A DNA stretch of 64,000 bases, taken from the NCBI GenBank assembly GCA_044342075.1, contig JBIIQM010000002.1, forward strand, positions 6,610 to 70,609, in the 5' to 3' direction. The translations under genes and the position numbers were made by a program. The notes under the pieces were generated by a model. The model was not told the DNA's origin and did not search any database. It saw nothing but the letters and a program-made list of their open reading frames with translations. Shown in pieces: positions 37,703-58,720 of the stretch. Every line of letters starts with the position of its first letter. Positions within the stretch are counted from its first letter, which is position 1. The stretch comes from Pirellulales bacterium (lineage in GTDB: Bacteria > Planctomycetota > Planctomycetia > Pirellulales > UBA1268).

Positions 37703-37858
37703 CGGCGGCGCGGCCCAAGGGCCACGTTCTCAAGCGGTGTCGGTGGCGGAAACTCTTTGGTGCCGATAGGATAACGCAGGTCTTGGCCGGCGTGTTTGGG
37801 GCTGGGATCAAACCTTCAAATAGTTCTTCGTTGTGGCATGTATCAGGAGACCGTCCAA

Positions 37859-39230: not shown

Positions 39231-39297
39231 GTAGGACAGGCTTCAGCCTGTCTCTTCTGCACAACGGGTCTACGCGACAGGCTGAAGCCTGTCCTAC
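39231..39297. repeat. REP doublet (REPIN-like), GTAG-headed family
   Basis: GTAGGACAGGCTTCAGCCTGTC (39231-39252), a 23-nt spacer, then the inverted unit GACAGGCTGAAGCCTGTCCTAC (39276-39297). Lies between convergent genes. Confidence 0.9.
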
Positions 39298-39647
39298 TGA
39301 GGAGGCGTCCGTATCCGTTCCTGCTCGAGCACGGGCATCGAGCGGATCGTGACGCCAGGCGCCGGCTGCTCCGCCGGCGGCATTCCCGACTGGGCGGGCA
39401 TACCGCGCCGCATCATCATCGCGCGATTCCGCGCCCGGATCCGGTCGCTGCGCAGCGGGATGCCCGGATAGGCCTCGATCGGCACCTCGAGGCTCGGCAG
39501 CCCGATCCGGCTGCCGTCGCCGAAGTAGGTAAACATCTCGATCGCACGCACTTCGCCAGGAATGGCAGCGAGCGAGATCGAAAGGAGCGAGAAGACCGCC
39601 GCCCGGCTGATGGTGCGATACACCACCGCCTGAAAACTCCGCCGCAT
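39294..39647 (-). CDS. small secreted protein, hypothetical
   Basis: ATG at 39647 (MRRSFQAVVYRTISRAAVFSLLSISLAAIPGEVRA...). The stop codon TAG lies inside the REP head. No family recognised. Confidence 0.4.
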   Translation of the reverse strand: MRRSFQAVVYRTISRAAVFSLLSISLAAIPGEVRAIEMFTYFGDGSRIGLPSLEVPIEAYPGIPLRSDRIRARNRAMMMRRGMPAQSGMPPAEQPAPGVTIRSMPVLEQERIRTPPQ

Positions 39648-39803
39648 GAAAAAATTCCGCTGGAGGTTCGTGCCGGCCACGGCATTCCTTCGTCCTCAAG
39701 CATCGGCAACCGGCCTGCGCGGGGTGACGATTTTCGGGCCAAACTGCCCGACCGGCACGACCGTCAAAGTCGGGGGCGGTCCACTCTGATGTAGGCTTGT
39801 TTC

Positions 39804-40694
39804 ATGCCGCTGCCCCTCGTCACCTGCATTGCCGCGATCGTTGCCGCAGGCTGTGCCGCCCTGGCTGCCTGGCGGGTGCGTGGCTCGACGGCCGTGCCTG
39901 CCGCATGGTGGGCGGTTGCCGCCTGCTTTGCGTTGGCTCTTGACGCGGGGAGCCGCGTGGGTGGCCCCACCGATCCCGCCGCGGCATCGCGGATGCGGCT
40001 CGTCGTGGCGGCGCTTGCCGTCTGCCCCGCGATGTCGCTCTTGGGCGCCAAGCGTCCGCAGCATGGCGTTTGGCAATTGATCGTGGCGTCGCTCGCCGTC
40101 GTGATCGCGATGCCCGCCCTCTCTGCCTGGCTCGTGCGGCCCGGCAGCCTGCCCGATGTCCACCTGCTCGGCCGGGGCTTCCTGGCCGTGCTCGCCGCCG
40201 TCGGCTGGATGAACTTTCTCGCCACGACGAACGGCATTTCAGCGACGGCGATCACTGCGGGCCAGCTGGCGGTGATCCGCCCCTTCCTTCCCGGCATCGC
40301 CACCGACCGGGCTCTGCCGCACGATTCGCTCGACTGTTTCGGGGCCTGCCTGATCGCCGCCGGAGCGGTGCTGGCGGCGGCGTGGCCGCTCGTGCGGCAA
40401 ACAAGCGCAGCGTCCGGCCGCAACGCCGCCGACGCCCTGAGCCGGTCGATCGACCCGCCGTTTCTCGCGCTCCGCGAGACGCTCGGCGCCGCCTGGGCGC
40501 TGCGGATCGCCGAACGCTTCGATTCGGTCGCCGCCGCCCGCGGCTGGCCCTGTCGTCTCGGGTTTCGCGGCGCCGAGGTCGGCGGCGACCCGGCTGATGA
40601 CTCGTGGCACCGCGACGCGCTGCGAGCCTTCAAGGCGCTCATGCATCGGTTCGTCGACGACGCCTGGCTCGCGCGGCACGGCTGGGGAGATTGA
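39804..40694 (+). CDS. polytopic membrane protein, hypothetical
   Basis: 296 aa. Six or more hydrophobic helices, then a soluble C-terminal ~90 aa. No family recognised. Confidence 0.45.
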   Translation: MPLPLVTCIAAIVAAGCAALAAWRVRGSTAVPAAWWAVAACFALALDAGSRVGGPTDPAAASRMRLVVAALAVCPAMSLLGAKRPQHGVWQLIVASLAVVIAMPALSAWLVRPGSLPDVHLLGRGFLAVLAAVGWMNFLATTNGISATAITAGQLAVIRPFLPGIATDRALPHDSLDCFGACLIAAGAVLAAAWPLVRQTSAASGRNAADALSRSIDPPFLALRETLGAAWALRIAERFDSVAAARGWPCRLGFRGAEVGGDPADDSWHRDALRAFKALMHRFVDDAWLARHGWGD

Positions 40695-40850
40695 GGGTCA
40701 TGCGGCTTGGAACGGCGTGTCGTTCGCGATCGCGCTAAGAATCTGCCGTGGGATGCATGCCCGCCAGTGGCCCCCGCGTCAGGAGGGCGGTAGACTTGCG
40801 GGCTGTTTCAGCGGAATTCTCTGAACCCTATTCCCTTTGAGGAGCCCCCC

Positions 40851-41183
40851 ATGGCCGATGAATCGAAGTCGCAGCGTGCCGCCGCCCCCGAACAGATGCA
40901 GGTGCCGGTCGATGAATCCCACATCGTCGCCCACTATGCCAACTTCTGCCGCGTGACCGGCACGCCCGAGGAGCTCATCGTCGACTTCGGCCTCAACAAG
41001 CAGGTCGCCGGCACGTCGCCCGAGACGATCCAGCTCACGCAGCGGATCATCGTGAACTTCTTCACCGCCAAGCGGCTCGCCTATGCCCTCGGCATGGCGG
41101 TGCAGCGTCATGAGCAGGCCTTCGGCATGCTCGAGACCGACGTGCAGAAGCGGGTTGTCCACCAGCAGCAGGCCAAGGCCTGA
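40851..41183 (+). CDS. DUF3467-like small protein
   Basis: 110 aa. GAGGAG RBS. YANFCRVTGTPEELIVDFGLN...IVNFFTAKRLAYAL resembles the DUF3467 core. Confidence 0.55.
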   Translation: MADESKSQRAAAPEQMQVPVDESHIVAHYANFCRVTGTPEELIVDFGLNKQVAGTSPETIQLTQRIIVNFFTAKRLAYALGMAVQRHEQAFGMLETDVQKRVVHQQQAKA

Positions 41184-41224
41184 TCCGGACGAGCCGGCCT
41201 CGCCCGGCCTGAAAACATCGCCCC

Positions 41225-43312
41225 ATGAGCACGGCCGACGAACAGGCGATCGAAGAGGCACGGCAGCAGATCCGTGCGCTCGTCGACGAGATCGAGACCC
41301 TCTCCCGCAACAATCTGGCGGAAGCGGATTTCTTTCGTGGCCTGCTCGATCGCGTGATCGAGGCGATGGGGGCCGTGGCGGGGCTCGTCTGGCTCATCGG
41401 CGAGCAGGGGCGGGTCGAGCCCGTCTGCCATGCGGGCATGCAGGGCACCGGCCTGACCGACGAGAAAGAATCGCAGGAGGCCCACGGCCGGCTCGTGCAG
41501 ACCCTGATCGGGAATCCGACGGGGCTGCTCGTGCCGCCGCGGGCCGGCCTCACCGGGCCCGACGGCAAGCCGGCCGCCGACAATCCGAGCGACCTGCTCG
41601 TCGTCTCTTCGCCGATCGATCGGGCGGGCAGTCGCGCCGGGCTGATCGAGGTCTTCCACCACCCGAATGCTCCCGACGTCGAGCGGGGCTATCTCAAGTT
41701 TCTCGAGCAGGTGTCGGCCGTGGCCGGCGGCTACCTCGAGCGACGGCAGCTCGTCACGCTCGACTCGCAGCAGGCGGCGCTCTCGCAGGTCGATCGGTTC
41801 AGCCGCGCGGTCCACGAATCGCTCGACCCCATCGCCACGGCATTCGTGCTGGCCAACGAGGCCCGGCGGATCATCGGCTGCGATCGGGTGAGCGTGCTCG
41901 TGAAGCGGCGGCGCAAACTCCGGCTCGAGGCGGTGAGCGGCCAGGAATCGATCGAGCGGCGGGCCACGGCCGTGCAGGCGATCGAGGCGATCGTCCGCGT
42001 GGTGGCGAAGGCAGGCGATCCACTCTGGCATCCGGATCCGGCGAAGGAACTCCCGCCGCAGATCGAGGAGGAGCTCGAGCACTACATCGACGAATCGCAT
42101 GCGACGGCGCTGGCGATCATCCCGCTTGAGAAGCCGCGGCCCACGCCGGTGGTAAAGCCGGGGGGCGTGGATGCGGTGGCCGTGGCGAAGGCGGAGGCGG
42201 CGCCGAAGCAGGTTCCCGAGCCGATCGGCGCGCTCGTCGCGGAATGGTTTTCGTCGAGCACGTTCGACGGGGGGAAGCGGGCCCGCGTGGAGCTCGTCGC
42301 GGAGCATGGCCGCGTGGCCCTTTCCAACGCGCTCGTCCACACGGGGCTGCCGTTCTACGGCGTCTTGAACCTGCTCGACAAATCGAAGGTGCTGACCACC
42401 GCCCGCAACCTGCCCCGCACCGTGCTCGCCGGTCTGGCGACGCTCGCCGGCATCCTCGCGCTGATTTTTATTCCGGCCGACCTGCGGCTCGAGGGGAAGG
42501 GCTCGCTCGAGCCGGTCCACCGCCGCGACGTCTTCGCGGAGATCCAGGGCGTGGTCGAGCGGCTCGAGCCCGGTCTCGAGCACGGCGCCGAGGTGAAGGA
42601 GGGGCAGCTCCTGGCCACGCTCCGCAACACCGATCTCGAGGTGGCGCTCACCGACGTGCTTGGCCGCAAGGCGTCGAGCGAGGAGCAGCTCGTGTCCACC
42701 CGCCGCGCCCTGCTCGAAGACAGCAAGATTTCGGCCGACGAAAAGACCCGCATGGCCGGCCGGGCCGCCCAGCTCCAGCGGGAGATCGAGAGCCTCGAGG
42801 AGCAGCGGAAGCTCTACGAGACGAAGAAGAAAGACCTCCTCGTGCGCAGCCCGATCGACGGCGTGATCGTGACCTGGCAGGTTCGCGATCGGCTGATCCT
42901 CAGGCCGGTGGAGCAGGGGCAGGTGCTCATGAGCGTGGCCGACAAGACCGGCCCTTGGGAGCTCGAGGTCCACATGCCCGACGACCGGCTCGGCCACATC
43001 AATCGCGCCGCGATGGCCGCGAAGCAGGCCGCCCGCGAGCTCGAGGTGGATTACATCCTGGCCACCGATCCCGGCACGCGGCACCGGGGCACCGTCAAGG
43101 AGATCCACGAGCAGGCCGAGGTTCGGGGCGAGCAAGGCAATACGGTGCTCGTGCGGGTCACGATCGATCCCAGCCGCCACGAGAAGGAAGAGCTTGGTGC
43201 GGGGGCGAGCGTCACGGCGCGGATCAACTGTGGCAAGCGTCCGCTCGGCTATGTCTGGTTTCACGACGTGCTTTCATTCATCCAATCGCAGATCCTCTTC
43301 CGGCTCTGGTGA
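41225..43312 (+). CDS. GAF-GAF-TM-HlyD membrane fusion (periplasmic adaptor) protein
   Basis: 695 aa. Two GAF-like regions (...AVAGLVWLIGEQGRVEP...AGLIEVFHH; ...FVLANEARRIIGCDRVSVLV...IGALVAEWF). One TM helix (VLAGLATLAGILALIFI). HlyD lipoyl/coiled-coil/barrel (VKEGQLLATLRN, long heptad stretch, LVRSPIDGVIVTW). Confidence 0.7.
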   Translation: MSTADEQAIEEARQQIRALVDEIETLSRNNLAEADFFRGLLDRVIEAMGAVAGLVWLIGEQGRVEPVCHAGMQGTGLTDEKESQEAHGRLVQTLIGNPTGLLVPPRAGLTGPDGKPAADNPSDLLVVSSPIDRAGSRAGLIEVFHHPNAPDVERGYLKFLEQVSAVAGGYLERRQLVTLDSQQAALSQVDRFSRAVHESLDPIATAFVLANEARRIIGCDRVSVLVKRRRKLRLEAVSGQESIERRATAVQAIEAIVRVVAKAGDPLWHPDPAKELPPQIEEELEHYIDESHATALAIIPLEKPRPTPVVKPGGVDAVAVAKAEAAPKQVPEPIGALVAEWFSSSTFDGGKRARVELVAEHGRVALSNALVHTGLPFYGVLNLLDKSKVLTTARNLPRTVLAGLATLAGILALIFIPADLRLEGKGSLEPVHRRDVFAEIQGVVERLEPGLEHGAEVKEGQLLATLRNTDLEVALTDVLGRKASSEEQLVSTRRALLEDSKISADEKTRMAGRAAQLQREIESLEEQRKLYETKKKDLLVRSPIDGVIVTWQVRDRLILRPVEQGQVLMSVADKTGPWELEVHMPDDRLGHINRAAMAAKQAARELEVDYILATDPGTRHRGTVKEIHEQAEVRGEQGNTVLVRVTIDPSRHEKEELGAGASVTARINCGKRPLGYVWFHDVLSFIQSQILFRLW

Positions 43313-43319
43313 GGCCCCC

Positions 43320-44231
43320 ATGCCCGTGCGACTCCTGCTTCTTGCTTCGATTGTGATCTCCTGTCAGCTCGCCGCCTTTGCCGAGGCTCCCGGCTCGTCG
43401 GAGCCGGTGCTCGAGCGGTGCCTCGTCTCGCTCGTGGAAGAGGCGAAGGTGCCGGCCCGCGAGCCGGGCGTGCTCGTGGAGCTCACCGTCCGCGAAGGGG
43501 CCACGGTCCGCCGCGGCGACGTGATCGCGAAGATCGACGACGACCAGCCACAGATGGAGAAGCGGAAGGCGAAGGCGGAGCACGACCAGGCGATCGCGAA
43601 GGCCGAGAGCGACGTCGACGTGCGGTATTCCATCACCGCCGAGCAGGTGGCGGAGGCCGAGCACAAAAAGGCTCTTGAGTCGCATGCGAAGGTGCCGGGG
43701 AGCGTGACGGAGGTCGAGCGGGCCCGGCTGATGCTCAACGAGCGAAAGAGCGAGCTGCAGATCGAACAGGCCGAGCTCGAGCGGCGGATGGCGACGCTCG
43801 CGGCCGCGTCGAAGGGAGTGGAGCTCGAAGCGGCCGAAAACGCGATCGAGCGGCGGCTGATCAAGAGCCCGCTCGACGGCGTGGTCGTGCAGATTTTCCC
43901 GCACCAGGGGGAGTGGATGCAGCCGGGCGACCCGCTGGCCCGCGTCGTCCGCGCCGACAAGCTCCGCGTGGAGGGCTACGTCGATTCGAGCCGGTTCGGT
44001 CCCGAGGAGGTTCGCGATCGGCCGGTGACGGTGGAGGTGAAGCTCGCCGACGACCGCAAGGAAACATTCGCGGGCCGGATCGTGTTCACGAGCCCGCTGG
44101 TGGAAAGCGGCGGTGATTACCGCGTGTTCGCCGAAGTGGAAAACCGCCAGGCCCCCGGTTCCGGCCAGTGGCTCCTGCGCGCCGGCCAGACCGCCCGCAT
44201 GACGATCCACTCCTCCCAACCACCGAAGTAG
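43320..44231 (+). CDS. HlyD-family periplasmic adaptor protein
   Basis: 303 aa. Signal peptide MPVRLLLLASIVISCQLAAFA, then VREGATVRRGDVIAKIDD, a coiled coil, and LIKSPLDGVVVQI. The TAG stop lies in the REP head. Confidence 0.75.
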   Translation: MPVRLLLLASIVISCQLAAFAEAPGSSEPVLERCLVSLVEEAKVPAREPGVLVELTVREGATVRRGDVIAKIDDDQPQMEKRKAKAEHDQAIAKAESDVDVRYSITAEQVAEAEHKKALESHAKVPGSVTEVERARLMLNERKSELQIEQAELERRMATLAAASKGVELEAAENAIERRLIKSPLDGVVVQIFPHQGEWMQPGDPLARVVRADKLRVEGYVDSSRFGPEEVRDRPVTVEVKLADDRKETFAGRIVFTSPLVESGGDYRVFAEVENRQAPGSGQWLLRAGQTARMTIHSSQPPK

Positions 44232-44280
44232 GACAGGCTTCAGCCTGTCGTTGTTCATGACAGGCTGAAGCCTGTCCTAC
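44228..44280. repeat. REP doublet (REPIN-like) inside the operon
   Basis: Units at 44228-44249 and 44259-44280 in inverted orientation, with the 9-nt spacer GTTGTTCAT. Confidence 0.9.
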
Positions 44281-44285
44281 TCCTC

Positions 44286-46520
44286 ATGTCCACCGCCGCC
44301 GACGCCTTTCGTTCGAGCACCACCAGGCCGGTGAGCCTCAAGCGGCGAGGCGATCTCGTCACGAACCGGCAGGTCTACCAGGGGCAGGCCTGGTGGGTGG
44401 TGAAAGACCCGATCTCACTCCACTACTTCCGGTTCCGCCCGGAGGAGTATTGGCTGCTCGACATGCTCGACGGCCAGAAGAGCCTGGAGGTGCTCAAGGA
44501 GCAGTTCGAGGCGAAGTTTCCGCCGCGGCGGATCACGGTGGAGGAGCTCTCGCGGTTCGTCGCCACGCTCCACCGCTCGGGGCTCGTGATCGGCGACCGC
44601 CCGGGGCAGGGTCCGCAGCTTTTCGAGCGGCGTCGGCAGCGGATCTGGAAGCAGTGGATGGCGTGGCTCGCGAACATCATGTCGATGCGGTTTCGCGGCA
44701 TCGATCCCGACCGGCTGCTCACGCGGCTCGATCCCTGGTTTGGCTGGCTCTTCTCGCCGCCGGCAATCGTCTGCATGCTGGCGTTCGTGGCGAGCGCCGT
44801 CCTGCTCGTGCTCGTGAATTTCGACACGTTCCGGTCGAAGCTGCCGGAGTTTCATCAGTTCTTCGCCGCGGGCAACTGGCTCTACCTGGCGATCGCGCTG
44901 GGCGTCACGAAGGTGCTGCATGAATTCGGCCACGGCCTTTCCTGCAAGCATTACGGCGGGGAATGCCACGAGATGGGCATGATGCTGCTCGTCTTCACCC
45001 CCTGCCTTTATTGCGACGTCTCCGACAGCTGGATGCTCCCCTCGAAGTGGAAGCGGGCGGCGATCGGAGCGGCGGGGATGTATGTGGAGGTGATCATCGC
45101 CTCGATCGCCACCTTCCTCTGGTGGAACTCGCATCCGGGCATCTTCAACCAGCTCTGCCTCGACGTGATGTTCGTCTCGAGTGTGTCGACGATCCTCTTC
45201 AATGCCAACCCGCTTTTGCGCTACGACGGCTACTACATCCTCTCCGACGTCCTCGAGATCCCGAACCTGCGGCAGAAGGCGACGACGATTCTCGGGCGGA
45301 TCGCGAGCCGCTGGTGCCTCGGCATCAAGCAGCCGGAGGACCCCTTCCTGCCGCAGCGGAATCGCGGCCTCTTCGCCCTCTACGCCGTGGCGTCGAGCCT
45401 CTACGGCTGGTTCGTGTCGCTCTCGATCTTTCTCTTCGTCTGGAGCGTCTTCAAGCCGTATCGGCTGGAGGTGCTGGGGCAGATCCTCGCGGGCGCGGCG
45501 CTCTGGGGCTTGGTGGTGAAGCCGATTCACGGGATGATCAAGTTTCTGAACGTGCCCGGGAGGCGCGACGAAGTGAAGACCAAAAACCTCGTGTTCACCG
45601 CGATCGTGGCGGCGGCCCTCGCCGGGGCGATCGCGCTCATTCCCCTGCCGCAGCGGGTCTGGTGCGCCGCCGAACTGCGGCCGCGCGGCGAGGAGACGGT
45701 CTATGTGACGGTGCCGGGGCGGCTCGAGAGCCTCGCCGTGAAGCCCGGCAGCCTCGTGAAGAAGGGGGACGAGATCGCCCGGCTGTCGAGTATCGACCTC
45801 GACCTCGAGATTGCGGATCTCGAGGGGAAGGCGTCACAATCGCGGTCGCGGCTCAACAGCCTCGAGCGGGAGCGGTTTACCGACCCGGCCGCCGGTCTCG
45901 AGATCGGCACGGTGGAGGAATCGCTCAAGAGCGTCGAGGAACAGCTCGACAAGAAGCGGAAAGACCGTCGCGATCTCGTGCTCGTGGCCCCGCGCGACGG
46001 CATCGTGCTGCCGGCGCCGGCGGTCGCGCCGCCGAAGGATGGCTCGGGACGGCTGCCCCCGTGGAGTGGCAACGCGCTCAAAGACAAGAACCTCGGAGCA
46101 ACCTTCCTCGAAGGCACGGTGCTCTGCATGGTGGGGGAGCCGGAGAAATTCGAGGCGGTGATGGTGGTGGACCAATCGGAGGTGGAGTTCATCGCGAAGG
46201 GGCAGCAGGTGGATCTCAAGCTCGATTCGTTCCCCTGGCAGACGTTCACGGGCACGGTCGCGGAAATCGCGGAGACCCACATCGAAAGCAGTTCCGAGCG
46301 GCTGAGCGTGAAGGCGGGCGGCCAGGTGCCGACGGAGACGACGGAGGAGGGCCGCGAGCAGCCGATCTCGACGAGCTATGAGGCGATGATGTCGCTCGAC
46401 GACACGGAGGCCGTGCTCACGCCGGGCATGCGTGGCACCGCGCGGATCAAGGTGGGCAGCCGCACCGTGGGCCAGTGGCTCCTCCGCCTCATCTGGCAAA
46501 CCTTCAACTTCCGCATGTAG
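44286..46520 (+). CDS. PqqD-like domain / M50 (site-2 protease family) metalloprotease / HlyD adaptor fusion protein
   Basis: 744 aa. N-terminal WWVVKDPISLHYFRFRPEEYWLLDMLDGQKSLEVLKEQF...LSRFVATLHRSGLV. Zinc motif LHEFGHGLSCKHYG. Second S2P motif NANPLLRYDGYYILSD within a polytopic region. C-terminal VKKGDEIARLSS, coiled coil, LVAPRDGIVL. Confidence 0.75.
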   Translation: MSTAADAFRSSTTRPVSLKRRGDLVTNRQVYQGQAWWVVKDPISLHYFRFRPEEYWLLDMLDGQKSLEVLKEQFEAKFPPRRITVEELSRFVATLHRSGLVIGDRPGQGPQLFERRRQRIWKQWMAWLANIMSMRFRGIDPDRLLTRLDPWFGWLFSPPAIVCMLAFVASAVLLVLVNFDTFRSKLPEFHQFFAAGNWLYLAIALGVTKVLHEFGHGLSCKHYGGECHEMGMMLLVFTPCLYCDVSDSWMLPSKWKRAAIGAAGMYVEVIIASIATFLWWNSHPGIFNQLCLDVMFVSSVSTILFNANPLLRYDGYYILSDVLEIPNLRQKATTILGRIASRWCLGIKQPEDPFLPQRNRGLFALYAVASSLYGWFVSLSIFLFVWSVFKPYRLEVLGQILAGAALWGLVVKPIHGMIKFLNVPGRRDEVKTKNLVFTAIVAAALAGAIALIPLPQRVWCAAELRPRGEETVYVTVPGRLESLAVKPGSLVKKGDEIARLSSIDLDLEIADLEGKASQSRSRLNSLERERFTDPAAGLEIGTVEESLKSVEEQLDKKRKDRRDLVLVAPRDGIVLPAPAVAPPKDGSGRLPPWSGNALKDKNLGATFLEGTVLCMVGEPEKFEAVMVVDQSEVEFIAKGQQVDLKLDSFPWQTFTGTVAEIAETHIESSSERLSVKAGGQVPTETTEEGREQPISTSYEAMMSLDDTEAVLTPGMRGTARIKVGSRTVGQWLLRLIWQTFNFRM

Positions 46521-46596
46521 GGTAGGCTTCAGCCTGCCAAAAAGTAGGACAGGCTTCAGCCTGTCGGTATTCATGACAGGCTGAAGCCTGTCCTAC
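46517..46596. repeat. REP cluster (3 units)
   Basis: Variant GTAGGGTAGGCTTCAGCCTGCC (46517-46538), a canonical unit (46544-46565), the spacer GGTATTCAT, and an inverted canonical unit (46575-46596). Confidence 0.9.
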
Positions 46597-46599
46597 CTC

Positions 46600-47460
46600 A
46601 TGCCCACGCTCGACCGCATCACGCTCTACCCCGTCAAAAGCCTCGACGGCGTCGAGGTGGCCGAGGCCCGCGTGATCCCCTCGGGCGCTCTCGAAAACGA
46701 CCGCCGCTGGCGGCTCGTGGATCTCGACGGCCGCGTCGTGAACGCCAAGCGCACGGCTGCGTTTCACTCGATCCGCGCTCAGTTCGACCTCGCAGAGAAA
46801 CTGATCTCGCTATCCCGCTGGGCCGATCCGCCATCGGCCGCGGCCGCCACGTTCCCGCTCGTGCCTGGACCGGAGGGACCGTGCGAGTGGCTCGCAGACG
46901 CCCTGGGCGTGAAGGTCCTGCTGGAAGAGCGGCATGACGGCGGCTTCCCTGACGACCGCGACGCGCCCGGCCCCACGCTCATCTCGACGGCGAGCCTCGA
47001 GGAAGTGGCCCGCTGGTTTGGTTTCGATCTCGCGGAGAGCCGCAGGCGGTTTCGGGCCAATCTCGAGATCGGCGGCTGCGATGCCTTTTGGGAAGACACG
47101 CTCGCAAGCCCCGCGCCAGCCCGTCTGCCACCGTTGCTCGGCGAATTGTCGCCAGACCTGCCAGGCGATCCCTACGCCGACCTGCCGCCGGCGGAGCCCC
47201 GGGAATTCTCGATCGGCGCGGCGAGGTTCCTGGCGACGAATGTCTGCAAGCGGTGCGTGGTGCCGAGCCGCGATAGCAAAACCGCGGCAGTGACGGCCCA
47301 CTTCCGCGACGCCTTCGAAGCCCGGCGGGGCAGGAGCCTGCGGGCCGACGTGGATGCCATCGGGTGGAACCACCTCCACCGGCTGGGCGTAAACACGCGC
47401 GCCGCCGGGGCGGGGGGGCGGATTGCCCTATCTGATGGGTTTTTCGAGTTACGACGGTAA
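46600..47460 (+). CDS. MOSC domain-containing protein
   Basis: 286 aa. ITLYPVKSLDGV (MOSC N-terminal beta-barrel), RFRANLEI, and CKRCVVPSRD (conserved Cys). Confidence 0.75.
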   Translation: MPTLDRITLYPVKSLDGVEVAEARVIPSGALENDRRWRLVDLDGRVVNAKRTAAFHSIRAQFDLAEKLISLSRWADPPSAAAATFPLVPGPEGPCEWLADALGVKVLLEERHDGGFPDDRDAPGPTLISTASLEEVARWFGFDLAESRRRFRANLEIGGCDAFWEDTLASPAPARLPPLLGELSPDLPGDPYADLPPAEPREFSIGAARFLATNVCKRCVVPSRDSKTAAVTAHFRDAFEARRGRSLRADVDAIGWNHLHRLGVNTRAAGAGGRIALSDGFFELRR

Positions 47461-47597
47461 CGCGGATTCGGCTCTGGGGTCCGGCTTGTTCAACTCCACT
47501 CGGGGGCCCGGCAGAAACCGCGTTGTTGTCCCTTGGCGTCCGCGGCGGTGATGCGGCTCGCGCCTCGGTCAGCGATGGCGTCGTCGCGGCAGTCTGA

Positions 47598-50096: not shown

Positions 50097-50248
50097 CGGA
50101 GTCGGATCCCTGGCGGTCGCCGGTTGGTCGAACGGGGCGATCCCCACGCGGAAAAACCGGCATGATCGTCAGGAGTGATCGACCCACCGCGACCGGATCC
50201 ATGAGAATTTCCGGCAGAGAGGCCGAGGGTTGCCCAGGTTAACAGGGA

Positions 50249-50357
50249 GTAGGACGGGCTTTAGCCTGTCGGAACATGGCAGGCTGGAAGCCTGCCCCAC
50301 CGGAGACAGGCTGAAGCCTGTCCTACTTGGGGAGACAGGCACGGAGGCCTGTCCTAC
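50249..50357. repeat. REP cluster (4 units)
   Basis: 50249-50270 GTAGGACGGGCTTTAGCCTGTC. 50278-50300 GGCAGGCTGGAAGCCTGCCCCAC (GTGG head on the other strand). 50305-50326 is canonical. 50334-50357 GACAGGCACGGAGGCCTGTCCTAC. Confidence 0.85.
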
Positions 50358-51958
50358 GAGACGCGGAAGCGGCTGATGGTGTCGGTGAGGCCGTCCACCG
50401 AGTGGCCCATGTGCTGTGAGGCGGCCTTGAATTCCTTCAGGGCCTCGGCGGCCGCGTGGGAGCCTTCTTTGAGCGTCATGAGGGCCTCGGTGATCTGGGC
50501 GGCTCCGGCAGCCTGGGCCTTCATCCCCTGATTCACGTGCTCGAACCGGCCCGTCAGGCCGTGCACCTTGTCGATCACGTCGGCGAATTGCGCACTGATC
50601 CCATTTACTCGCTCCACGCCCGTCTTCACCTCCGCCGCAAACCGGTCCATCTCCATCACGCCCGCATTCACCGCCTGCTGCATCTGCTCGACGAGCCGCT
50701 CGATGTCGAGCGTGGCCACGGCCGTCTGATCGGCGAGCCGGCGGATCTCCCGGGCCACCACGATGAAACCCTGCCCATATTCCCCCGCCTTCTCCGCCTC
50801 GATCGCGGCGTTGATCGAAAGCAGGTTCGTCTGGTCGGCCACCTTCGTGATCGTGGTGATCACCATGTTGATGTCTTCCGCCCGCTGCCGGATCGCCGCC
50901 AGCCGCTCCGAGAAATCGGTCGTCGTCTTTTCGAGATGGGCCATCGTCTCGCCGATCCCCACGAGATTCTCCCGGCCTGCGTCGGCCACGGTTGCCGTGT
51001 CGGCCGCCACGCCCGCCACCTCGTCCATCGTGCCGAGCAGTTCCTGGCCTGTCACGGCGATCTGACGGCTGGCCACCGCCGCCTCGCTCGTGCTCGCGCC
51101 GAGCGAACTGATCGCGTGCTCCTGCTGGCGGCCCGCGGCCGAGAGTTGCTTGGCCGTGGCATTCAGATCGAGGCTCGATTGCTTCACCTGCGAGACAATG
51201 GCCCGCAGGCTCGCCGTCATGCCGCCGATGTCGCGGAGCAACTGGCCCGTCTCGTCGCTGCCACGCATATCGATCGCGCCGGTGAGGTCGCCGGCGGCCA
51301 CGCGGCGCGAGGCGTCGACAGCCTTCGCGATCCGGCCGGTGAGCGTCGTTGTGAGCCACGCGAGCAGCGCCAGCACGCCCGCCATCCCGGTGGCGGCCAC
51401 GGCTCCACTCATGAGGAGCGGCCGGCGGACACGGCTCAAGACATCGTCGAGCTGCGCCTGCAAGACGACCGTCCACGAGCGGGCAGGCAGTTTCGCCGCG
51501 GCGTAGAGCAGGGGGGCGCCCGTCACCGGGTCGGCGGCCTGCACGATCCGGGCGGTCGTCACGGCCCGATTGAATTCATCGAGGACCTTTGCATAGGGCG
51601 TGTCGGCGATCAGTTTGCCGCTGAGGTCGGCCGTGGCCACCGTCGCAGCGATCAGCCGCCCTTCGCGGTCAATCACGAAGAGCTCCGGATGCCAGCCGGC
51701 CCGCTGCTGCTCGCGCTTGTCGGCCTGGAGCCGCGCCGCCACGGCGTCGGCCGCAGCCTGATCCGCCGCGGGGCCTTGGCAATCGAATTCGCCGGCGATC
51801 CGCCGCACCCGCTCCACGAGCACCTCCTCGCTAAAGGAGAGCAGCATCGACTGCATCCGGCTGTAGTTGAGCCAGAGCACCGTCGCAAAGATGAGGAGCG
51901 CCGGCAGGATGCCGAGCAGGAGCATCCGCAGCCGGATGCCGATGGCGGGGAACTGCAT
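50354..51958 (-). CDS. methyl-accepting chemotaxis protein
   Basis: 534 aa. Two TM helices flanking a periplasmic domain, a HAMP-like segment, and the signalling-domain core [39 protein letters not shown]. Confidence 0.85.
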
Positions 51959-52077
51959 GGTGGTGGGTCCGGGGAAAGGCCTGTTTTCCGAGGCAACCAT
52001 AGGTTACTTTCCGGGCCGGCCGCTTGCGGCTCGCCTGGGCCCCTCTTTCCCGAAAAACCCGCACAACCCGCCCCGCC

Positions 52078-52689
52078 ATGCCCCATCCCGCCGCTTGGCA
52101 GCTTCAAGACCACGACGCCCTGCTCTTCGACTGCGACGGCACGCTCGCCGACACCATGCCCGCCCACTACCGGGCCTGGCTCCATGTGACGGAGGCCCAC
52201 GGCATCGCCTTCGACGAAGACCGCTTCTATTCGATGGGGGGCCGGCCCACCCGCGACATCGTCGCGACGCTCGCCCGCGAGCGGGGCATCGAGATCGACG
52301 TCGATCACGCCGTCCATATGAAAGAGACCTCGTTCCTCGCCCAGCTCGACCGGATCGAGGCGATCGATCCGGTGGTGGACGTGGTGCTGCGGTCGCGCGG
52401 CCGCGTGCCGATGGCAGTGGTGACCGGGGGCTACCGGAATGTCTGCCTGCAGATTCTCGAGCGGGTGGGGATCGCCGACTGCTTCGACACGATCGTGGCC
52501 AGCGAAGACACGAGCAAACACAAGCCCGACCCCGATCCATTTCTCGAGGCCGCCCGCAGGCTGGGCGCCCGGCCGGAGCGGTGCGTGGTTTGGGAAGACA
52601 GCGACCTCGGCATTGCGGCCGCCCGCGCAGGCGGCATGGAGTGGATCGATGTGCGGTCGTTTCATAGGCCGAAGCGGGTGACGGGATGA
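52078..52689 (+). CDS. HAD-superfamily hydrolase (beta-phosphoglucomutase-like subfamily IA)
   Basis: 203 aa: LLFDCDGTLADT (motif I), AVVTGG (motif II), KHKPDPDPFL, WEDSDLGIAAARAAGM-like motif III/IV. Confidence 0.8.
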   Translation: MPHPAAWQLQDHDALLFDCDGTLADTMPAHYRAWLHVTEAHGIAFDEDRFYSMGGRPTRDIVATLARERGIEIDVDHAVHMKETSFLAQLDRIEAIDPVVDVVLRSRGRVPMAVVTGGYRNVCLQILERVGIADCFDTIVASEDTSKHKPDPDPFLEAARRLGARPERCVVWEDSDLGIAAARAGGMEWIDVRSFHRPKRVTG

Positions 52690-52692
52690 CGT

Positions 52693-52740
52693 GACAGGCT
52701 GAAGCCTGTTTGACTTTTGACAGGCTGAAGCCTGTCCTAC
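52693..52740. repeat. REP cluster (2 direct units)
   Basis: 52693-52714 GACAGGCTGAAGCCTGTTTGAC (degenerate head), TTTT, then a canonical unit at 52719-52740. It ends 2 nt before the ilvA-like start. Confidence 0.85.
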
Positions 52741-52742
52741 TT

Positions 52743-53960
52743 ATGCACACATTTGCGATCACAGACATTCGTGCGGCGCATGAGCGGATCCGCTCCGGGA
52801 TCTACCGGTCACCGTGCCCGAAGAGCATCGCGCTTTCCGACCTCACGGGCTCGGAGATCTTCTGCAAGCTCGACCTTTTGCAGCGGACCGGCTCGTTCAA
52901 GGAACGCGGTGCCCGCAACGCGCTTCTCCTCCTCGACGACGCGCAGAAAGCCCGTGGTGTGGTGGCTGCCTCCGCGGGCAATCACGCGCTTGGCCTGGCC
53001 TACCACGGCCGGCTGCTTGGCATCCCGGTGACCGTCGTGATGCCGCGGTTTGCGCCGCTGGTGAAGGTGGCGACCTGCCGACGGCTGGGCGCGACGGTGA
53101 TCCTCGAAGGGGAAACATTCGACGACGCTCGCCGGCTGGCCGTGGAGATCGCCGCCCGCGACCAGCTCAACCGCATCCACGGCTTTGACGACCTGCGGGT
53201 GATCGCGGGGCAGGGGACGATGGGCCTCGAGATCCTCGAAGATGTGCCCGATGCCGACGCGATCATCGTGCCCTGCGGCGGGGCCGGCCTGCTCGCCGGT
53301 GTGGCCACGGCCGCCAAGGCGTTGCGGCCCGATATCAAGATCATCGCCGTCGAGCCGGCGGCCGCCGCGAGCTTTTCGGCATCGCTCGCCGCGGGCAAGC
53401 CCGTGCAGGTGGCGATCCGCCCCACGCTCGCCGACGGCCTCGCCGTCGGGAAGGTGGGCGAGACGTCGTTTCCGATCGCGGCGCCGCTCGTCGATCGCGT
53501 GGTCACCGTCGGCGAGGACAGCCTGTCGCTCGCCGTGCTGCGGCTCTTGGAGCTTGAGAAGACGGTGGTCGAGGGAGCGGGCGCGGCGTCGCTTGCAGGC
53601 GTGATGCAGCTCGTCGCCGAGGGCTGCGACGACCTCCGTGGCCGGAAGGTGGTGCTCCTGCTCTGCGGCGGCAACATCGATCTCTCGATTCTCGACCGCG
53701 TGATCGACCACGGGCTCGCCGCCGACGGCCGCCGCTGGCGATTCACCACGCAGGTGAGCGACCGCCCCGGCGGCATCGCAAAACTCACGGCCGCGATCGC
53801 GGCGGCGGGCGCGAGCGTGCAGGAGATCGTGCACGACCGGGCTTTTTCCGGCCCGGACGTCTTTTCGACGAGCGTGCAGGTGACCGTCGAGACGGCCGAC
53901 CGCGACCATGTGGGGGCCCTTGCCCGTCGGCTCGAGGCCGATGGTTTTACCGTCAAGTAG
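52743..53960 (+). CDS. ilvA: threonine ammonia-lyase (threonine dehydratase), short form with one regulatory domain
   Basis: 405 aa: LQRTGSFKERGA (PLP lysine), ASAGNHALGLAY, PCGGAGLLAG, and a C-terminal ACT-like domain. Confidence 0.85.
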   Translation: MHTFAITDIRAAHERIRSGIYRSPCPKSIALSDLTGSEIFCKLDLLQRTGSFKERGARNALLLLDDAQKARGVVAASAGNHALGLAYHGRLLGIPVTVVMPRFAPLVKVATCRRLGATVILEGETFDDARRLAVEIAARDQLNRIHGFDDLRVIAGQGTMGLEILEDVPDADAIIVPCGGAGLLAGVATAAKALRPDIKIIAVEPAAAASFSASLAAGKPVQVAIRPTLADGLAVGKVGETSFPIAAPLVDRVVTVGEDSLSLAVLRLLELEKTVVEGAGAASLAGVMQLVAEGCDDLRGRKVVLLLCGGNIDLSILDRVIDHGLAADGRRWRFTTQVSDRPGGIAKLTAAIAAAGASVQEIVHDRAFSGPDVFSTSVQVTVETADRDHVGALARRLEADGFTVK

Positions 53961-54130
53961 GGTAGGCTTCAGCCTGCCACTCTTAGACCGCTTCCAAAGT
54001 AGACCGCTTCGTCCCGAAGCGGATCTGGTTCCGCTTGAGGATCAAGCGGACTACTCTGGCAGGCTGAAGTCTGTCCTACTTTGACAGGCTGAAGCCTGTC
54101 CTACGCCAGACAGGCTGAAGCCTGTCCTAC
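53957..54130. repeat. composite REP cluster (two GTAG-headed families)
   Basis: Variant unit at 53957-53978. Family-2 hairpins GTAGACCGCTTCG-TCC-CGAAGCGGATCT (53999-54026) and the inverted GTAGTCCGCTTGA-TCC-TCAAGCGGAAC (54029-54054, other strand). A degenerate unit at 54058-54079 and canonical units at 54083-54104 and 54109-54130. Confidence 0.85.
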
Positions 54131-54249
54131 TTTGCGGGCTGGGCAAGCTGCGCGGGCGGAGGGATTTCCGCTGTTTTTCTGCGTTAGTGGCTGCCGATAC
54201 CTCTCCGATGGTGCGTTCGGCCGGGACGCTCCAGCAGGAGACTTCTTTC

Positions 54250-54408
54250 ATGGTCACTCACTCGAGCAGCCTGTTGGTCGAGCCGGCCCGCCAGATCCCA
54301 TCCTCATCCGGGCCGAACCAGGAACGCGAGCAATTGCGCCGCGAACTCCTGCGTCGGATCATCGACAGGGAGACGAGGCGGCAAGCCCTTCGCGGCTCGC
54401 CGCAATGA
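54250..54408 (+). CDS. possible 52-aa protein, hypothetical
   Basis: ATG preceded by CAGGAGA-N8, the same spacing as the protease gene 30 nt downstream. Arg/Glu-rich helix QLRRELLRRIIDRETRRQAL. No family recognised. Confidence 0.3.
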   Translation: MVTHSSSLLVEPARQIPSSSGPNQEREQLRRELLRRIIDRETRRQALRGSPQ

Positions 54409-54438
54409 CTCCCGGAGCCACATCAGGAGATCACTCGT

Positions 54439-55521
54439 ATGCGAAACACATGCGGCACGATCATCCTGGCGGCCTCCCTCGCGATCGTCGGCGTGGCCCT
54501 CCGGCCCGCGGCTGCCCAGCAGCCGTTCTGGGGCTGGTCCACACAGCCGGCCGCGAGCACGAAATGGTCGCCTGAGCTCTTTGCCGACTACATCGGCACG
54601 GGGCAGACGCCGCACCCCGCGGTCGCGCGGATCGTCGCCCCCGAAAACTCGGGCACCTCGCTCGGCTCGGGTGTGCTCGTCGACGTGAATCGCAACCAGG
54701 GGCTCGTGCTCACCAACTGGCACGTGATCCGTGACAGCCGCTCCGCCGTGCTCGTGCAATTCCCCGATGGCTTTCAGTCGGCCGGTACCGTCGTCCGCTG
54801 GGACGAGCCGTGGGACCTGGCGGCGATCGTCATCTGGAAGCCGAACGCCACGCCCATCACGCTCGCCGACAAGCAGCCCGAACTCGGCGAGCCGCTCACG
54901 ATCGCCGGCTACGGCCGCGGGCCATTCCGCGCGGAGACGGGGCCTTGCACGCAATACCTCGCGCCGGGCTCCGGCTATCCGCTGGAATTCGTCGAGCTCT
55001 CGGCGACCGCCCGGCAGGGCGATTCCGGCGGGCCGATCCTCAACGCGCAGGGGCAGCTCGCCGGCGTGCTCTTCGGGCAGAACGACGGCCGCACGATCGG
55101 CAGCTGCTCCACGCGGCTGCGGACCTTTCTCGCGGGCGTGGGCTCCCGCGGCTTTCAGGGCATGCCGATCGCCGAATTCTCGCGCGAGCCGGCGCTGGCC
55201 CGCAGCCTCGGCACGCCGGCTGGGCAGGATCGCACCCGGCTGGCGTCGGTCACCGATGCCGAGGTGCCCGACGTCGTCCAGCGGTCGACCCACGTGGCCG
55301 CGCCGCTCTCGATGCCACCATCGCCGCCGTTTGGCCAGCAGTCCGGCTATCCACAAGAGTGGGAGGGCCCGGACAGCGAGCCGGCACTAGCCGACCTGCT
55401 CGACCCGCGGAGCAACCGCGATGCGATGCTTTCGGCCGGTGGCGGGCTCGCCATGGCGATCCTCGGGCTGCGGACGATTTTCGGCGGCCGCCGGCGGGAG
55501 TTGGGCGACGCAGCCGGCTGA
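54439..55521 (+). CDS. trypsin-like serine protease (S1C-like) with C-terminal membrane anchor
   Basis: 360 aa. Signal peptide, then GSGVLVD...VLTNWHV (His), WDLAAI (Asp) and RQGDSGGPIL (Ser). C-terminal GGGLAMAILGLRTIFGG. Confidence 0.7.
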   Translation: MRNTCGTIILAASLAIVGVALRPAAAQQPFWGWSTQPAASTKWSPELFADYIGTGQTPHPAVARIVAPENSGTSLGSGVLVDVNRNQGLVLTNWHVIRDSRSAVLVQFPDGFQSAGTVVRWDEPWDLAAIVIWKPNATPITLADKQPELGEPLTIAGYGRGPFRAETGPCTQYLAPGSGYPLEFVELSATARQGDSGGPILNAQGQLAGVLFGQNDGRTIGSCSTRLRTFLAGVGSRGFQGMPIAEFSREPALARSLGTPAGQDRTRLASVTDAEVPDVVQRSTHVAAPLSMPPSPPFGQQSGYPQEWEGPDSEPALADLLDPRSNRDAMLSAGGGLAMAILGLRTIFGGRRRELGDAAG

Positions 55522-55536
55522 TGTAAAACGCATGGC

Positions 55537-56784
55537 ATGACGCCGCAGCACTTCAGGATCGCCGCGCTCCTCCTGCTCGCCTGCTCGGCCACGGCCGCGG
55601 CGGAACAGATTCCCGAATGGCCCGGCTACCGTGGCCCGACCGGCGACGGCCATGCGGTCGCCGCGAACCTTCCGCTCGATCTCAACGCCCCAACGAACCT
55701 CGCCTGGAAGACGCCGATCCCGGGCGTCGGCTGGAGCACGCCCGTCGTCCTCGGCGAGCAGATCTGGATGACCACGGCCACGCCCGACGGCACGTCGCTT
55801 CGCGCCGTCTGCGTAAACCGCCGCTCAGGCGCGATCGAGCGCGACATCGAGGTCTTCCGCGTCGAGAAGCCGATAGAGATTCACAAGAAAAATTCCCACG
55901 CCTCGCCCACGCCGGTGATCGAAGCCGGCCGGCTCTACGTCCACTACGGCACCAACGGCACGGCGGCGATCGACACGTCGTCGGGCGGCGTCCTCTGGCG
56001 CGACACCACCCATCCGCTCGAGCACTACGTGGGACCCGGCAGCTCGCCCGTGCTCTACGGCGACCTGCTCATCCTCACCTGCGACGGCGCCGACGTGCAA
56101 TTCTCGGTGGCGCTCGACAAGCGCACGGGCAAGGAAGTCTGGAAGGCCGCGCGATCAGGGAAGCTCCGTGACGATCCGGACGTGCGCAAGAGTTTTTCGA
56201 CGCCCGCGATCCTCCGCGTGGGCGATCGTGACGAGCTTGTGACTCCCGCCGCGGATCACGTCTACGCCTACGATCCGGCCACCGGCCGCGAACTCTGGCA
56301 GCTCGACTACGAGGGCTTTTCGGTGGTGCCCAGGCCCGTCGCGGCCCACGGCCTCGTCTTTGTGTGCACGGGCTTCAACACGCCGCGGCTCCTCGCGATT
56401 CGGCAAGGAGGAGAGGGGCGGCTCGCCGCCGACGCGGTGGCCTGGGAGGAACGCAGCCAGATTCCGGCCAATCCCTCGCCGCTCATCGTGGGCGATGCGA
56501 TCTACGTGGTGAGCGACCGCGGCGTCGCCACCTGCCTCGACGCCCGCACCGGGAAGGAACGCTGGCGGCATCGCGTCGGCGGCAACTATTCCGCGTCGCC
56601 GCTCTATGCCGACGGCAAGATCTTCCTCGCGAGCGAGGAGGGAGTGATCACGGTCATCGAGCCGGCGGCCGCCTACCGCGAGGTGGCCAAGAGCGACCTC
56701 GCGGCGCGGATCATGGCATCGCCAATCGCGATCGGCGACGAGCTCATCATCCGCACCGCCGACGACCTGCGACTCTACAAGTAG
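55537..56784 (+). CDS. PQQ-like beta-propeller repeat protein
   Basis: 415 aa. Signal peptide, WPGYRGPTGDG, and repeated ...G..LW+ / ...TG+E.W+ blades (SSGGVLWRD, RTGKEVWKA, ATGRELWQL, RTGKERWRH). Confidence 0.75.
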   Translation: MTPQHFRIAALLLLACSATAAAEQIPEWPGYRGPTGDGHAVAANLPLDLNAPTNLAWKTPIPGVGWSTPVVLGEQIWMTTATPDGTSLRAVCVNRRSGAIERDIEVFRVEKPIEIHKKNSHASPTPVIEAGRLYVHYGTNGTAAIDTSSGGVLWRDTTHPLEHYVGPGSSPVLYGDLLILTCDGADVQFSVALDKRTGKEVWKAARSGKLRDDPDVRKSFSTPAILRVGDRDELVTPAADHVYAYDPATGRELWQLDYEGFSVVPRPVAAHGLVFVCTGFNTPRLLAIRQGGEGRLAADAVAWEERSQIPANPSPLIVGDAIYVVSDRGVATCLDARTGKERWRHRVGGNYSASPLYADGKIFLASEEGVITVIEPAAAYREVAKSDLAARIMASPIAIGDELIIRTADDLRLYK

Positions 56785-56902
56785 GGTAGGCTTCAGCCTG
56801 CCAACGCAGAAAGTAGGGTAGGCTTCAGCCTGCCAAATGCGGCCCCGATTCATTGGCAGGCCAAAGGCTACCTATGAAAAGGCAGCCTAAAGGCTACCCT
56901 AC
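56781..56902. repeat. REP cluster (2 variant + 2 degenerate units)
   Basis: GTAGGGTAGGCTTCAGCCTGCC at 56781-56802 and 56813-56834. Degenerate inverted units at 56855-56875 and 56881-56902. Lies between convergent genes. Confidence 0.85.
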
Positions 56903-57435
56903 CGGGCCTTCTTCGTAACCGTGACCTTCTTGATCGTCACGGGCTCGACGGGGCGGTCGCCGCCGCCGGTCTTCACGTTGCCGATCGCCTTCACCACGTC
57001 GAGGCTCGCCGCATCGGCGGTGCGGCCGAAGACGGTGTATTGGTTGTCGAGGTGCGGCACCCGCTCGAGGCAGATGAAGAACTGGCTGCCGGCCGAGTTG
57101 GGGTCGTTCGTGCGGGCCATCGACAAGACGCCCGGTTCGTGCGGCGTGCGGTTGAACTCGGCGGGGATCTTGTAGCCCGGGCCGCCGGTGCCCGTGCCCT
57201 CGGGGCAGCCTCCCTGGATCATGAAGCCCTTGATGATCCGGTGGAAGCAGCCGCTGTCGTAGAACCCGCTCTCGGCGAGCGCCACCATGTTGCGGACGTG
57301 GCCGGGGGCCACTTTCGAGTCGAGGGCGAGGCGGATCGGGCCGGCGCTCGTGTCGAGCGTCACCTCGTAGTCAAAACCATCGAGATCGACGGCCTTGGCG
57401 GCCTTCTGCAGATCGGCGGCGGACGGCTTGGGCAT
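56899..57435 (-). CDS. ppiB: peptidyl-prolyl cis-trans isomerase, cyclophilin type
   Basis: 178 aa: FHRIIKGFMIQGGCP, GVLSMARTNDPNSAGSQFFI, YTVFGR. Confidence 0.9.
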   Translation of the reverse strand: MPKPSAADLQKAAKAVDLDGFDYEVTLDTSAGPIRLALDSKVAPGHVRNMVALAESGFYDSGCFHRIIKGFMIQGGCPEGTGTGGPGYKIPAEFNRTPHEPGVLSMARTNDPNSAGSQFFICLERVPHLDNQYTVFGRTADAASLDVVKAIGNVKTGGGDRPVEPVTIKKVTVTKKAR

Positions 57436-57470
57436 GAAAACTCCTCCTGGGGCTGTTAGGCTCGACGAGC

Positions 57471-58634: not shown

Positions 58635-58692
58635 CGGTTTTTGCCGGCAAAGGACGGTTTGCGGCGGTTTGGAGCGGGGTGTTCAAGTTTGC

Positions 58693-58720
58693 TTGACACC
58701 CCGTCCGACACTCTTACAGT
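58693..58720 (+). promoter_or_regulatory. sigma-70-like promoter for the tRNA gene
   Basis: TTGACA (58693-58698), 16 nt, then TACAGT (58715-58720). It ends 14 nt before the tRNA 5' end. Confidence 0.5.

Follow-up and report, generated by a model that had tools for sequence, protein, structure and literature searches.

A gene for a REP-associated tyrosine transposase (RAYT, also TnpA-REP) that is flanked by its own repetitive extragenic palindromes (REPs) is termed a REPtron. In the described cases (E. coli YafM, structure 4ER8, PMC3479197; Nunvar 2010, PMC2817692; Ton-Hoang 2012, PMC3333891), an HUH/Y1 gene is bracketed by inverted REPs with a GT[AG]G head. The GTAG superfamily of REPs, which includes Stenotrophomonas SMAG and Pseudomonas GTAG-1, was reported from the Planctomycetes–Verrucomicrobia–Chlamydiae (PVC) superphylum and Planctomycetes by Di Nocera, De Gregorio & Rocco (2013, BMC Genomics 14:522, PMC3733652). 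Its members carry an unpaired GTAG beside a short GC-rich stem-loop and number hundreds of copies, which stand singly, as dimers or in clusters; among the dimers, those with GTAG outside ('HH') predominate, there is an association with tyrosine transposase genes, and the REP termini often supply the TAG stop of flanking open reading frames (ORFs). In Pseudomonas fluorescens, two inverted REPs form one long hairpin, the REPIN, and near-identical populations of these elements are found beside a single RAYT, with an inheritance that looks vertical and lineage-restricted (Bertels & Rainey 2011, PMC3116915). The bacterial interspersed mosaic elements (BIMEs) of enterobacteria are mosaic clusters of mixed REP types. 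Here we describe a REP family with a 22-nt unit that occupies seven clusters in a 64-kb window of the genome of a Pirellulales bacterium.

The window is the whole stretch analysed, positions 6610-70609 of contig C125 (JBIIQM010000002.1) in assembly GCA_044342075.1 (G000), which has 3.28 Mb in 172 contigs, 67.6% G+C and an estimated completeness of 93%. Very probably, the repeats form a GTAG-superfamily REP family whose units are copied in trans by a RAYT and retained at the 3' ends of genes. The REP/RAYT system is passed on inside a single genus of freshwater Planctomycetia. Elements of this kind have been described before: the first-pass annotation of the window, made from its letters, knew of no description from planctomycetes, but GTAG REPs of Planctomycetes and their TAG stops were published in 2013 (PMC3733652). 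The strings GACAGGC and GTAGGAC do not occur in the main text of that paper. The less ordinary feature is the apparent exchange of a RAYT cassette at a fixed site, leaving the dominant REP family without its usual enzyme in the assembly.

The main-family unit is GTAGGACAGGCTTCAGCCTGTC (also written GTAGGACAGGC). Folded as single-stranded DNA, it has four free 5' bases (GTAG), a 7-bp stem and a 4-nt loop, the anatomy given by the first-pass annotation (-6.9 kcal/mol, z -4.4). A pattern search allowing three mismatches or fewer found 17 matches in the window, versus 0 in 100 shuffles, and all 17 lie within 39231-56834. Base-by-base reading of the seven clusters counted 21 main-family units, degenerate and variant ones included, close to the 20 or so first noticed; the units added to the pattern matches are those at 52693-52714, 50334-50357, 56855-56875 and 56881-56902. 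Beyond these, the clusters contain one GTGG-headed unit of a sister family and one pair of a second GTAG family. The inverted doublets fold into hairpins of 22-24 bp, where 22 bp had been proposed, at -25.6 to -27.7 kcal/mol (z -8.8 to -12.4). By pattern search, no main-family units are present at 1-39230 or 56903-64000 of the window, so the two flanks that had been read as empty (1-39200 and 57000-64000) are so. The first 45.9 kb of the contig are the longest unit-free run of the whole assembly, and the dense 18 kb of the window fall in the top bin of the genome-wide counts per 18 kb; these counts are only mildly overdispersed (mean 2.0, variance 2.9).

Across the whole assembly, the same search gave 647 matches on 116 of the 172 contigs, 340 of them exact, and the unit core is the most frequent 16-mer of the genome. 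A palindrome-aware census counted 665 units whose head departs from GTAG by one change at most; they form 377 clusters, of which 173 are singlets, 145 doublets and 59 larger; among 733 core matches, 630 have a GTAG head and 19 a GTGG head. With this dispersal, and with RAYT-like genes encoded in the genome, the repeats are the dispersed mobile-type REP family that had been supposed. They resemble the GTAG superfamily of PMC3733652 in all the respects listed above, including the predominance of HH dimers: GTAG points outward in 177 adjacent inverted pairs and inward in four. The spacers set them apart, since those of inverted pairs have a mode of 9 nt here (54 pairs), as against mostly 20-100 bp in PMC3733652, and their length is conserved while their sequence mostly is not. 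Direct neighbours stand 3-5 nt apart (107 adjacent direct pairs). Where two main-family units are 30-36 nt apart, the spacer usually contains one unit of the GTGG family, as at 50249-50326. The second GTAG-headed family, GTAGACCGCTTCGTCCCGAAGCGGATC, has about 57 copies genome-wide, one site being at 9300-9323 of the window. The GTAG head is kept across the other REP families of the genus while the stems differ.

Compensated changes occur in the stem of the main family. Pair 6-21 is A-T in 500 units and G-C in about 129-130, and pair 10-17 is G-C in 652 units and C-G in seven. On the GTAG strand there are wobbles (T.G in 129 units and G.T in 52) that would be mismatches if read on the opposite strand; these counts derive from two subfamilies and are effectively two events, a hint and no test.

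Of the 54 dimers with a 9-nt spacer, 21-23 share the spacer TTGATTGAT within one or two changes, and these constitute a 53-nt REPIN-like master. The remaining spacers are unrelated, and per-site diversity is 0.52 in the 9-nt dimer spacers versus 0.04-0.05 in the units. The first-pass annotation took the doublets for REPINs; the doublet as replicating unit is supported for only a subset of the dimers, those that share the spacer. The three short spacers that it listed (GTTGTTCAT, GGTATTCAT and GGAACAT) were read correctly, but their CAT ending is no family feature, being found in only seven of 102 short spacers genome-wide. The family resembles the P. fluorescens REPINs in that two inverted REPs form one long hairpin, in its near-identical population beside a single RAYT and in an inheritance that looks vertical and lineage-restricted, but differs in the limited sharing of the master spacer and in the commonness of singlets (173) and direct pairs (107).

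Placement relative to genes was studied with a crude home-made caller based on G+C content at third codon positions (GC3), which is not an annotation (2279 genes, 84% coding). On these calls, 612 of the 665 units (approximately 92%) lie outside genes. Clusters occupy 143 of 388 convergent gaps (37%), 171 of 1342 tandem gaps (13%) and 21 of 377 divergent gaps (6%). Singlets no more than 40 nt from the 3' end of a gene have the head toward the gene in 92 cases and away from it in 25. In 216 units a coding-like ORF stops in frame at the TAG of the head, versus 11 and 5 units for the other two frames. This is how seven window genes stop, four of them on the plus strand (44231, 46520, 53960 and 56784) and three on the minus strand (39294, 50354 and 56899). 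Of the 2166 called stops, 776 are TAG, which is high for a genome of this G+C content, and REP heads supply 216 of these 776 (approximately 28%). Unit orientation gave no signal relative to replication direction with GC skew as proxy (p 0.37); gene strand is likewise unrelated to skew, which makes the proxy uninformative. An intrinsic terminator was considered and rejected, since in the GTAG orientation no T-run follows the consensus hairpin, and in the reverse orientation it is followed by only CTACTT.

With at most one mismatch, the unit is present in 15 of 15 other species of the genus, in 11-567 copies each (one of these congeners' contigs is JAPLNR010000035.1, from Planctomycetia bacterium LacPavin_0818_WC50_MAG_66_15). 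It was not found in 25 genomes of other genera of the family and order, except for a single one-mismatch match in G024. The GTGG sister family is restricted to G000 (55 copies), G009 (15) and G014 (12).

A Pfam Y1_Tnp search across the genus gave a weak match in the congener G010, in a gene flanked by the main unit. This RAYT has 175 aa, with the HUH motif NHVHLVF and the Tyr motif NYVEFNPVKAGL, and lies between msrB-like and argF-like genes with five main units upstream and three downstream. The RAYTs of G002, G012, G007 and G008 are likewise flanked by the main unit, which makes five congeners with G010. In G006, main units flank a RAYT homologue that contains an in-frame TGA and a frame break and is probably a pseudogene; this genome has only 46 units. 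The NCBIfam model REP_Tyr_transpos (NF047646, cut-off 80) scores the G010 protein at 83.5 bits and that of G000 at 81.0 bits, and the sole relative of the genus RAYTs in the Protein Data Bank is E. coli TnpA-REP 4ER8 (E 1.5e-11). H113 and H115 of the HUH motif and Y185 are invariant in an alignment of 10 genus RAYTs. These proteins have 175-235 aa, compared with 165 aa in the 4ER8 chain, and their N-terminal RRRxLPHYD motif is followed by an insert that varies among them.

Each of the RAYT lineages of the genus has GT[AG]G hairpins of its own on either side. GTAG-headed families flank the RAYT G011b (GTAGCGACAGGCCTCCAGGCCTGTCG) and those of G011a and G005 (GTAGGTGCAGACTGGCAGTCTGCAC), and a distant RAYT of 222 aa in G009 is flanked by GTAGACCGCTTGCTCCGCAAGCGGATC, the second family seen at 53999-54054 of the window; a G009-type RAYT for this second family was not found in the G000 assembly. 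The nearest relatives of these RAYTs come from Pirellulaceae, Gemmataceae and other metagenome-assembled genomes of Planctomycetota, and GT[AG]G hairpins are present on both flanks of 47 of 80 RAYT relatives (Planctomycetota, Acidobacteriota, Verrucomicrobiota, Chloroflexota and Ignavibacteria). Two further observations concern these genes. A GTGTAC-rich near-palindrome (e.g. GGTAGTGTACGCTAGTATACGCG, GTAATGTACAAATGTACAT) is found 20-40 nt before the start of each genus RAYT, whichever REP family flanks it, for example at about 1455-1480 of locus L018 and at about 30268-30290 of contig C94 in G000; it may be a conserved operator or promoter element. The reading frame of the G007 RAYT (L021) continues through three downstream REP units, which gives the protein a REP-encoded tail (…VGQASACQNVGQASACQTMNDRLKPVLHDMP).

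The RAYT of G000 is missed entirely by Pfam Y1_Tnp and was found only by tblastn with a congener protein. When all genus RAYTs were used as queries, tblastn identified one member of the clade in the assembly, at C94:30308-30928 and at the msrB-argF site, besides three Y1 genes of another class. The C94 enzyme shares 40-47% identity with those of the G010 type. On its flanks stand not main units but units of the GTGG family GTGG(G/C)GCAGGCTTC(C/T)AGCCTGC(C/T) (the GTGGGGCAGGCTTCCAGCCTGCC type). This family departs from the main one at two compensated stem pairs, at one base of the loop and at one of the head. A RAYT flanked by the window's own units, for which the first-pass annotation advised a search, exists in five congeners but was not found in the G000 assembly. 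As in the REPtrons described above, an HUH/Y1 gene is bracketed by inverted GT[AG]G REPs; there is one gene of the clade per genome, at an msrB-argF site conserved in six species, with msrB-RAYT-argF synteny in G000, G010, G002, G008 and G011b and the msrB side in G007. The difference is that in G000 the family flanking the resident RAYT is not the dominant one.

Between G000 and G010, the msrB flank is 87% and the argF flank 93% identical, while the RAYT/REP cassette between them is without nucleotide similarity. The RAYTs flanked by the main unit fall into a supported clade (99/96) of G010, G002, G007, G012 and G008 plus G011b, the last lying inside it yet carrying a different REP family. 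The G000 RAYT lies outside this clade, with Pirellulaceae-type RAYTs, at moderate support (85/84). The conserved flanks, the dissimilar cassette and the tree position together suggest that the msrB-argF site has passed from one RAYT lineage to another. Contig ends hold no excess of units (13 observed versus 13.7 expected), so REP-induced assembly breaks, considered as the reason for the missing cognate RAYT, do not explain its absence. We tentatively propose that the cassette at this site was swapped between lineages, each bringing its own REP family, and that G000 carries the 'wrong' RAYT beside its approximately 665 main units. The main family in G000 is either cross-mobilized by the C94 enzyme, or served by a cognate RAYT that was not assembled, or recently orphaned.

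Turnover is visible at orthologous sites, as the first-pass annotation had suggested it might be. Six window sites could be placed, and at all of them G010, G014 or G002 differs from G000 in unit number, variant or family (at 46517-46596 the G002 match was not placeable), while the flanking genes at the compared sites are 88-94% identical between G000 and both G010 and G014. The site 44228-44280 has a doublet in G000, nothing in G010 and a singlet in G002; at 50249-50357 there are four units in G000, a plain doublet in G010 and nothing in G002; and at 53957-54130 G000 has six hairpins and G014 and G010 one each, the site being empty in G001 (GGC TAG) and G006 (CGG TAA). Empty orthologous sites were thus seen in G001, G006, G002 and G010. 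The gene 44286-46520 ends with ATG TAG in every species, and different GTAG-headed families stand on that GTAG in different species, which fits either insertion beside a GTAG that was already there or a repeated exchange of units at an old REP site. Such differences between species, in whether units are present, in how many there are and in which REP family they belong to, fit mobility.

Two other structures were noticed at these sites. The G014 orthologue of 53957 (L144 / L161) has a single hairpin with heads on both sides, GTAGGACAGGCTGAAGCCTGTCCTAC, a perfect 26-nt palindrome that might be a collapsed doublet or an excision footprint. A longer palindrome family (e.g. GTAGGCAAAACATGGACCTCCGGTCCATTTTTGCC...) is found at the orthologues of window sites 44228 and 46517 in G010, G008 and G006 (L128, L130, L133).

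In the mechanism that we favour, the RAYT, an HUH/Y1 enzyme related to TnpA of IS200/IS605, would recognize the single-stranded hairpin with its unpaired 5' GTAG, cut it and rejoin it, and units would be copied in trans into new sites. They would persist where they are harmless, just after genes and often flush with them, so that the TAG of the head becomes the stop codon. Several points weigh against this account. How units are cut and copied is inferred by analogy with E. coli and IS200/IS605, and tblastn with all genus RAYTs found no RAYT in the G000 assembly that is flanked by the exact main unit. The sequences of most dimer spacers are unrelated, so the doublet is not clearly the sole copied unit, and selection or conversion could be acting on the units. 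The counts of gene placement depend on the crude home-made gene calls.

The main family may alternatively be orphaned, its cognate RAYT having been lost when the msrB-argF cassette was replaced, and the approximately 665 units would then be a non-replicating legacy that has not yet decayed. The contrast between the similar flanks (87% and 93%) and the unalignable segment between them, the position of the G000 RAYT outside the 99/96 clade that holds every RAYT flanked by the main unit, the lack of another clade copy in the assembly and the unremarkable number of units at contig ends all agree with such a loss. About half of the units (340 of 665) are nevertheless still exact, and at the compared sites units are more numerous in G000 than in its closest relatives; a gene of 0.7 kb could be missed in an assembly of 172 contigs and 93% completeness, and G011 shows that two RAYTs can coexist at different loci. 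We regard orphaning as somewhat unlikely.

Selection by the host, with hairpins kept or multiplied for mRNA 3' ends, translation termination or DNA topology and the RAYT playing no current part, would account for the strong 3'-end bias and the flush contact with stop codons; the wobbles on the GTAG strand (129 T.G and 52 G.T) are compatible with a single-stranded, possibly RNA, form, and such roles of REPs are discussed in the abstract of PMC3733652. It leaves unexplained the 340 identical 22-mers at unrelated sites, the separate REP family around each RAYT and the turnover of families at the same site between species; moreover, the hairpin is not followed by a T-run and the wobbles amount to two events, and we judge it improbable. 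Still less credible is mobilization of the main family by an enzyme of another Y1 class. Pfam Y1_Tnp finds three full genes of this class in G000, on C125 (237-911), C101 and C33, which encode proteins of approximately 224 aa with the HUH motif NHWHFV and the Tyr motif RYVERN; the one on C125 lies 5.7 kb before the window, and the statement that the window itself contains no RAYT was correct. Their best NCBIfam match is the RAYT model, at 61-68 bits and so below its cut-off of 80. They form a distant outgroup in the RAYT tree, no main-family unit is present near any of the three, and they are flanked by inverted repeats of their own without GTAG (AAAGGTGTCAGGACTCTTTT, AAAGGGGACGCAGCTCATTT and GGGGACGGGAGCGGAT); with these repeats and a score below the cut-off, they were discarded as candidates for the cognate enzyme. 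A local duplication, tandem or segmental, limited to 18 kb could be read from the window, where all copies lie within 39231-56902, and it has next to no probability: 665 units on 116 contigs dispose of it, and all 15 congeners carry the unit.

These longer Y1 genes have repeat families of their own. The gene at C125:237-911 (224 aa) is bracketed by inverted AAAAGGTGTCAGGACTCTTTT, of which there are approximately 79 copies genome-wide. Arms of the same sequence form an inverted repeat between two convergent genes of the window (5476-5495 / 5536-5555), and the pairing of this type of repeat with a Y1 gene also occurs in G014 and G012; AAAAGGTGTCAGGACTCTTTT appears to represent a second repeat family, one without GTAG that has a tyrosine nuclease of its own. 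In C101:1300-3348, a Y1 gene of the longer class is flanked by inverted repeats of AAAGGGGACGCAGCTCATTTCG (approximately 58 copies genome-wide), with a truncated second Y1 copy at the contig end and a toxin-antitoxin-like pair (GNAT-type acetyltransferase) between the copies. The third gene, C33:3982-4665, is flanked by GGGGACGGGAGCGGAT arms.

The REP/RAYT family of the window shows the following arrangement in its seven clusters. The cluster at 39231-39297 is an inverted doublet of canonical units with a 23-nt spacer: the plus-strand unit GTAGGACAGGCTTCAGCCTGTC (39231-39252) begins 1 nt past the TGA stop of gene 37796-39229, and the TAG in the head of its minus-strand partner (39276-39297) is, at 39296-39294, the stop of the minus-strand gene 39294-39680. 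The next doublet consists of canonical units at 44228-44249 (+), with the head TAG (44229-44231) as stop of gene 43194-44231, and 44259-44280 (-), separated by the 9-nt spacer GTTGTTCAT; its 53 nt fold at -27.7 kcal/mol. At 46517-46538 (+), a unit of the subfamily GTAGGGTAGGCTTCAGCCTGCC, which has the compensated change from A-T to G-C and a T.G wobble, provides the stop of gene 44286-46520, and it is followed by a canonical doublet, 46544-46565 (+) and 46575-46596 (-), with the 9-nt spacer GGTATTCAT.

The cluster at 50249-50357 mixes REP types in the manner of enterobacterial BIMEs, but the family differs from these in that two REP types do not alternate regularly with fixed linker classes. 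It comprises the variant GTAGGACGGGCTTTAGCCTGTC (50249-50270, +), the GTGG-headed unit GTGGGGCAGGCTTCCAGCCTGCC (50278-50300, -), a canonical unit (50305-50326, -) and the variant GTAGGACAGGCCTCCGTGCCTGTC with a 6-nt loop (50334-50357, -), whose head provides, with its TAG (50356-50354), the stop codon for the minus-strand gene 50354-52000. The GTGG-headed unit, nested between two main-family units, had been seen in the first reading; it is no variant of the main family, as had been thought, but belongs to the sister family with a 5-nt loop. At 52693-52740, a degenerate unit with a decayed head, GTCAAACAGGCTTCAGCCTGTC (52693-52714, -), precedes a canonical one (52719-52740, -).

The cluster at 53957-54130 begins with a unit of subfamily GTAGGGTAGGCTTCAGCCTGCC (53957-53978, +), its head TAG being the stop of gene 52710-53960. 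Nested inside this main-family cluster is the inverted pair of the second GTAG-headed family, GTAGACCGCTTCGTCCCGAAGCGGATC and its partner (53999-54054), and then follows a direct array with 3-4-nt spacers on the minus strand, made up of the variant GTAGGACAGACTTCAGCCTGCC (54058-54079) and canonical units at 54083-54104 and 54109-54130. The last cluster has two units of subfamily GTAGGGTAGGCTTCAGCCTGCC on the plus strand, at 56781-56802, where the head TAG is the stop of gene 55537-56784, and at 56813-56834. On the minus strand it has a degenerate unit at 56855-56875 (GGCAGGCCAAAGGCTACCTAT on the plus strand) and the compensated variant GTAGGGTAGCCTTTAGGCTGCC (56881-56902), with the stem GGTAGCC/GGCTGCC and a head whose TAG (56901-56899) terminates the minus-strand gene 56899-57435.

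Most work on REP/RAYT systems has dealt with Proteobacteria, and the family described here is a large, clean population in a freshwater planctomycete genus, where several GTAG-headed families are co-resident, each with its own RAYT lineage. The TAG stops supplied by REPs matter for the annotation of gene ends and for the stop-codon statistics of these metagenome-assembled genomes. The cassette swap at a conserved site is a handle on the co-evolution of REP family and enzyme. If true, it would put the specificity of RAYTs for their REPs to a natural test: either the main family is cross-mobilized by the newly arrived enzyme, or a large REP population has just been orphaned, in which case its decay would be datable against the sister species.

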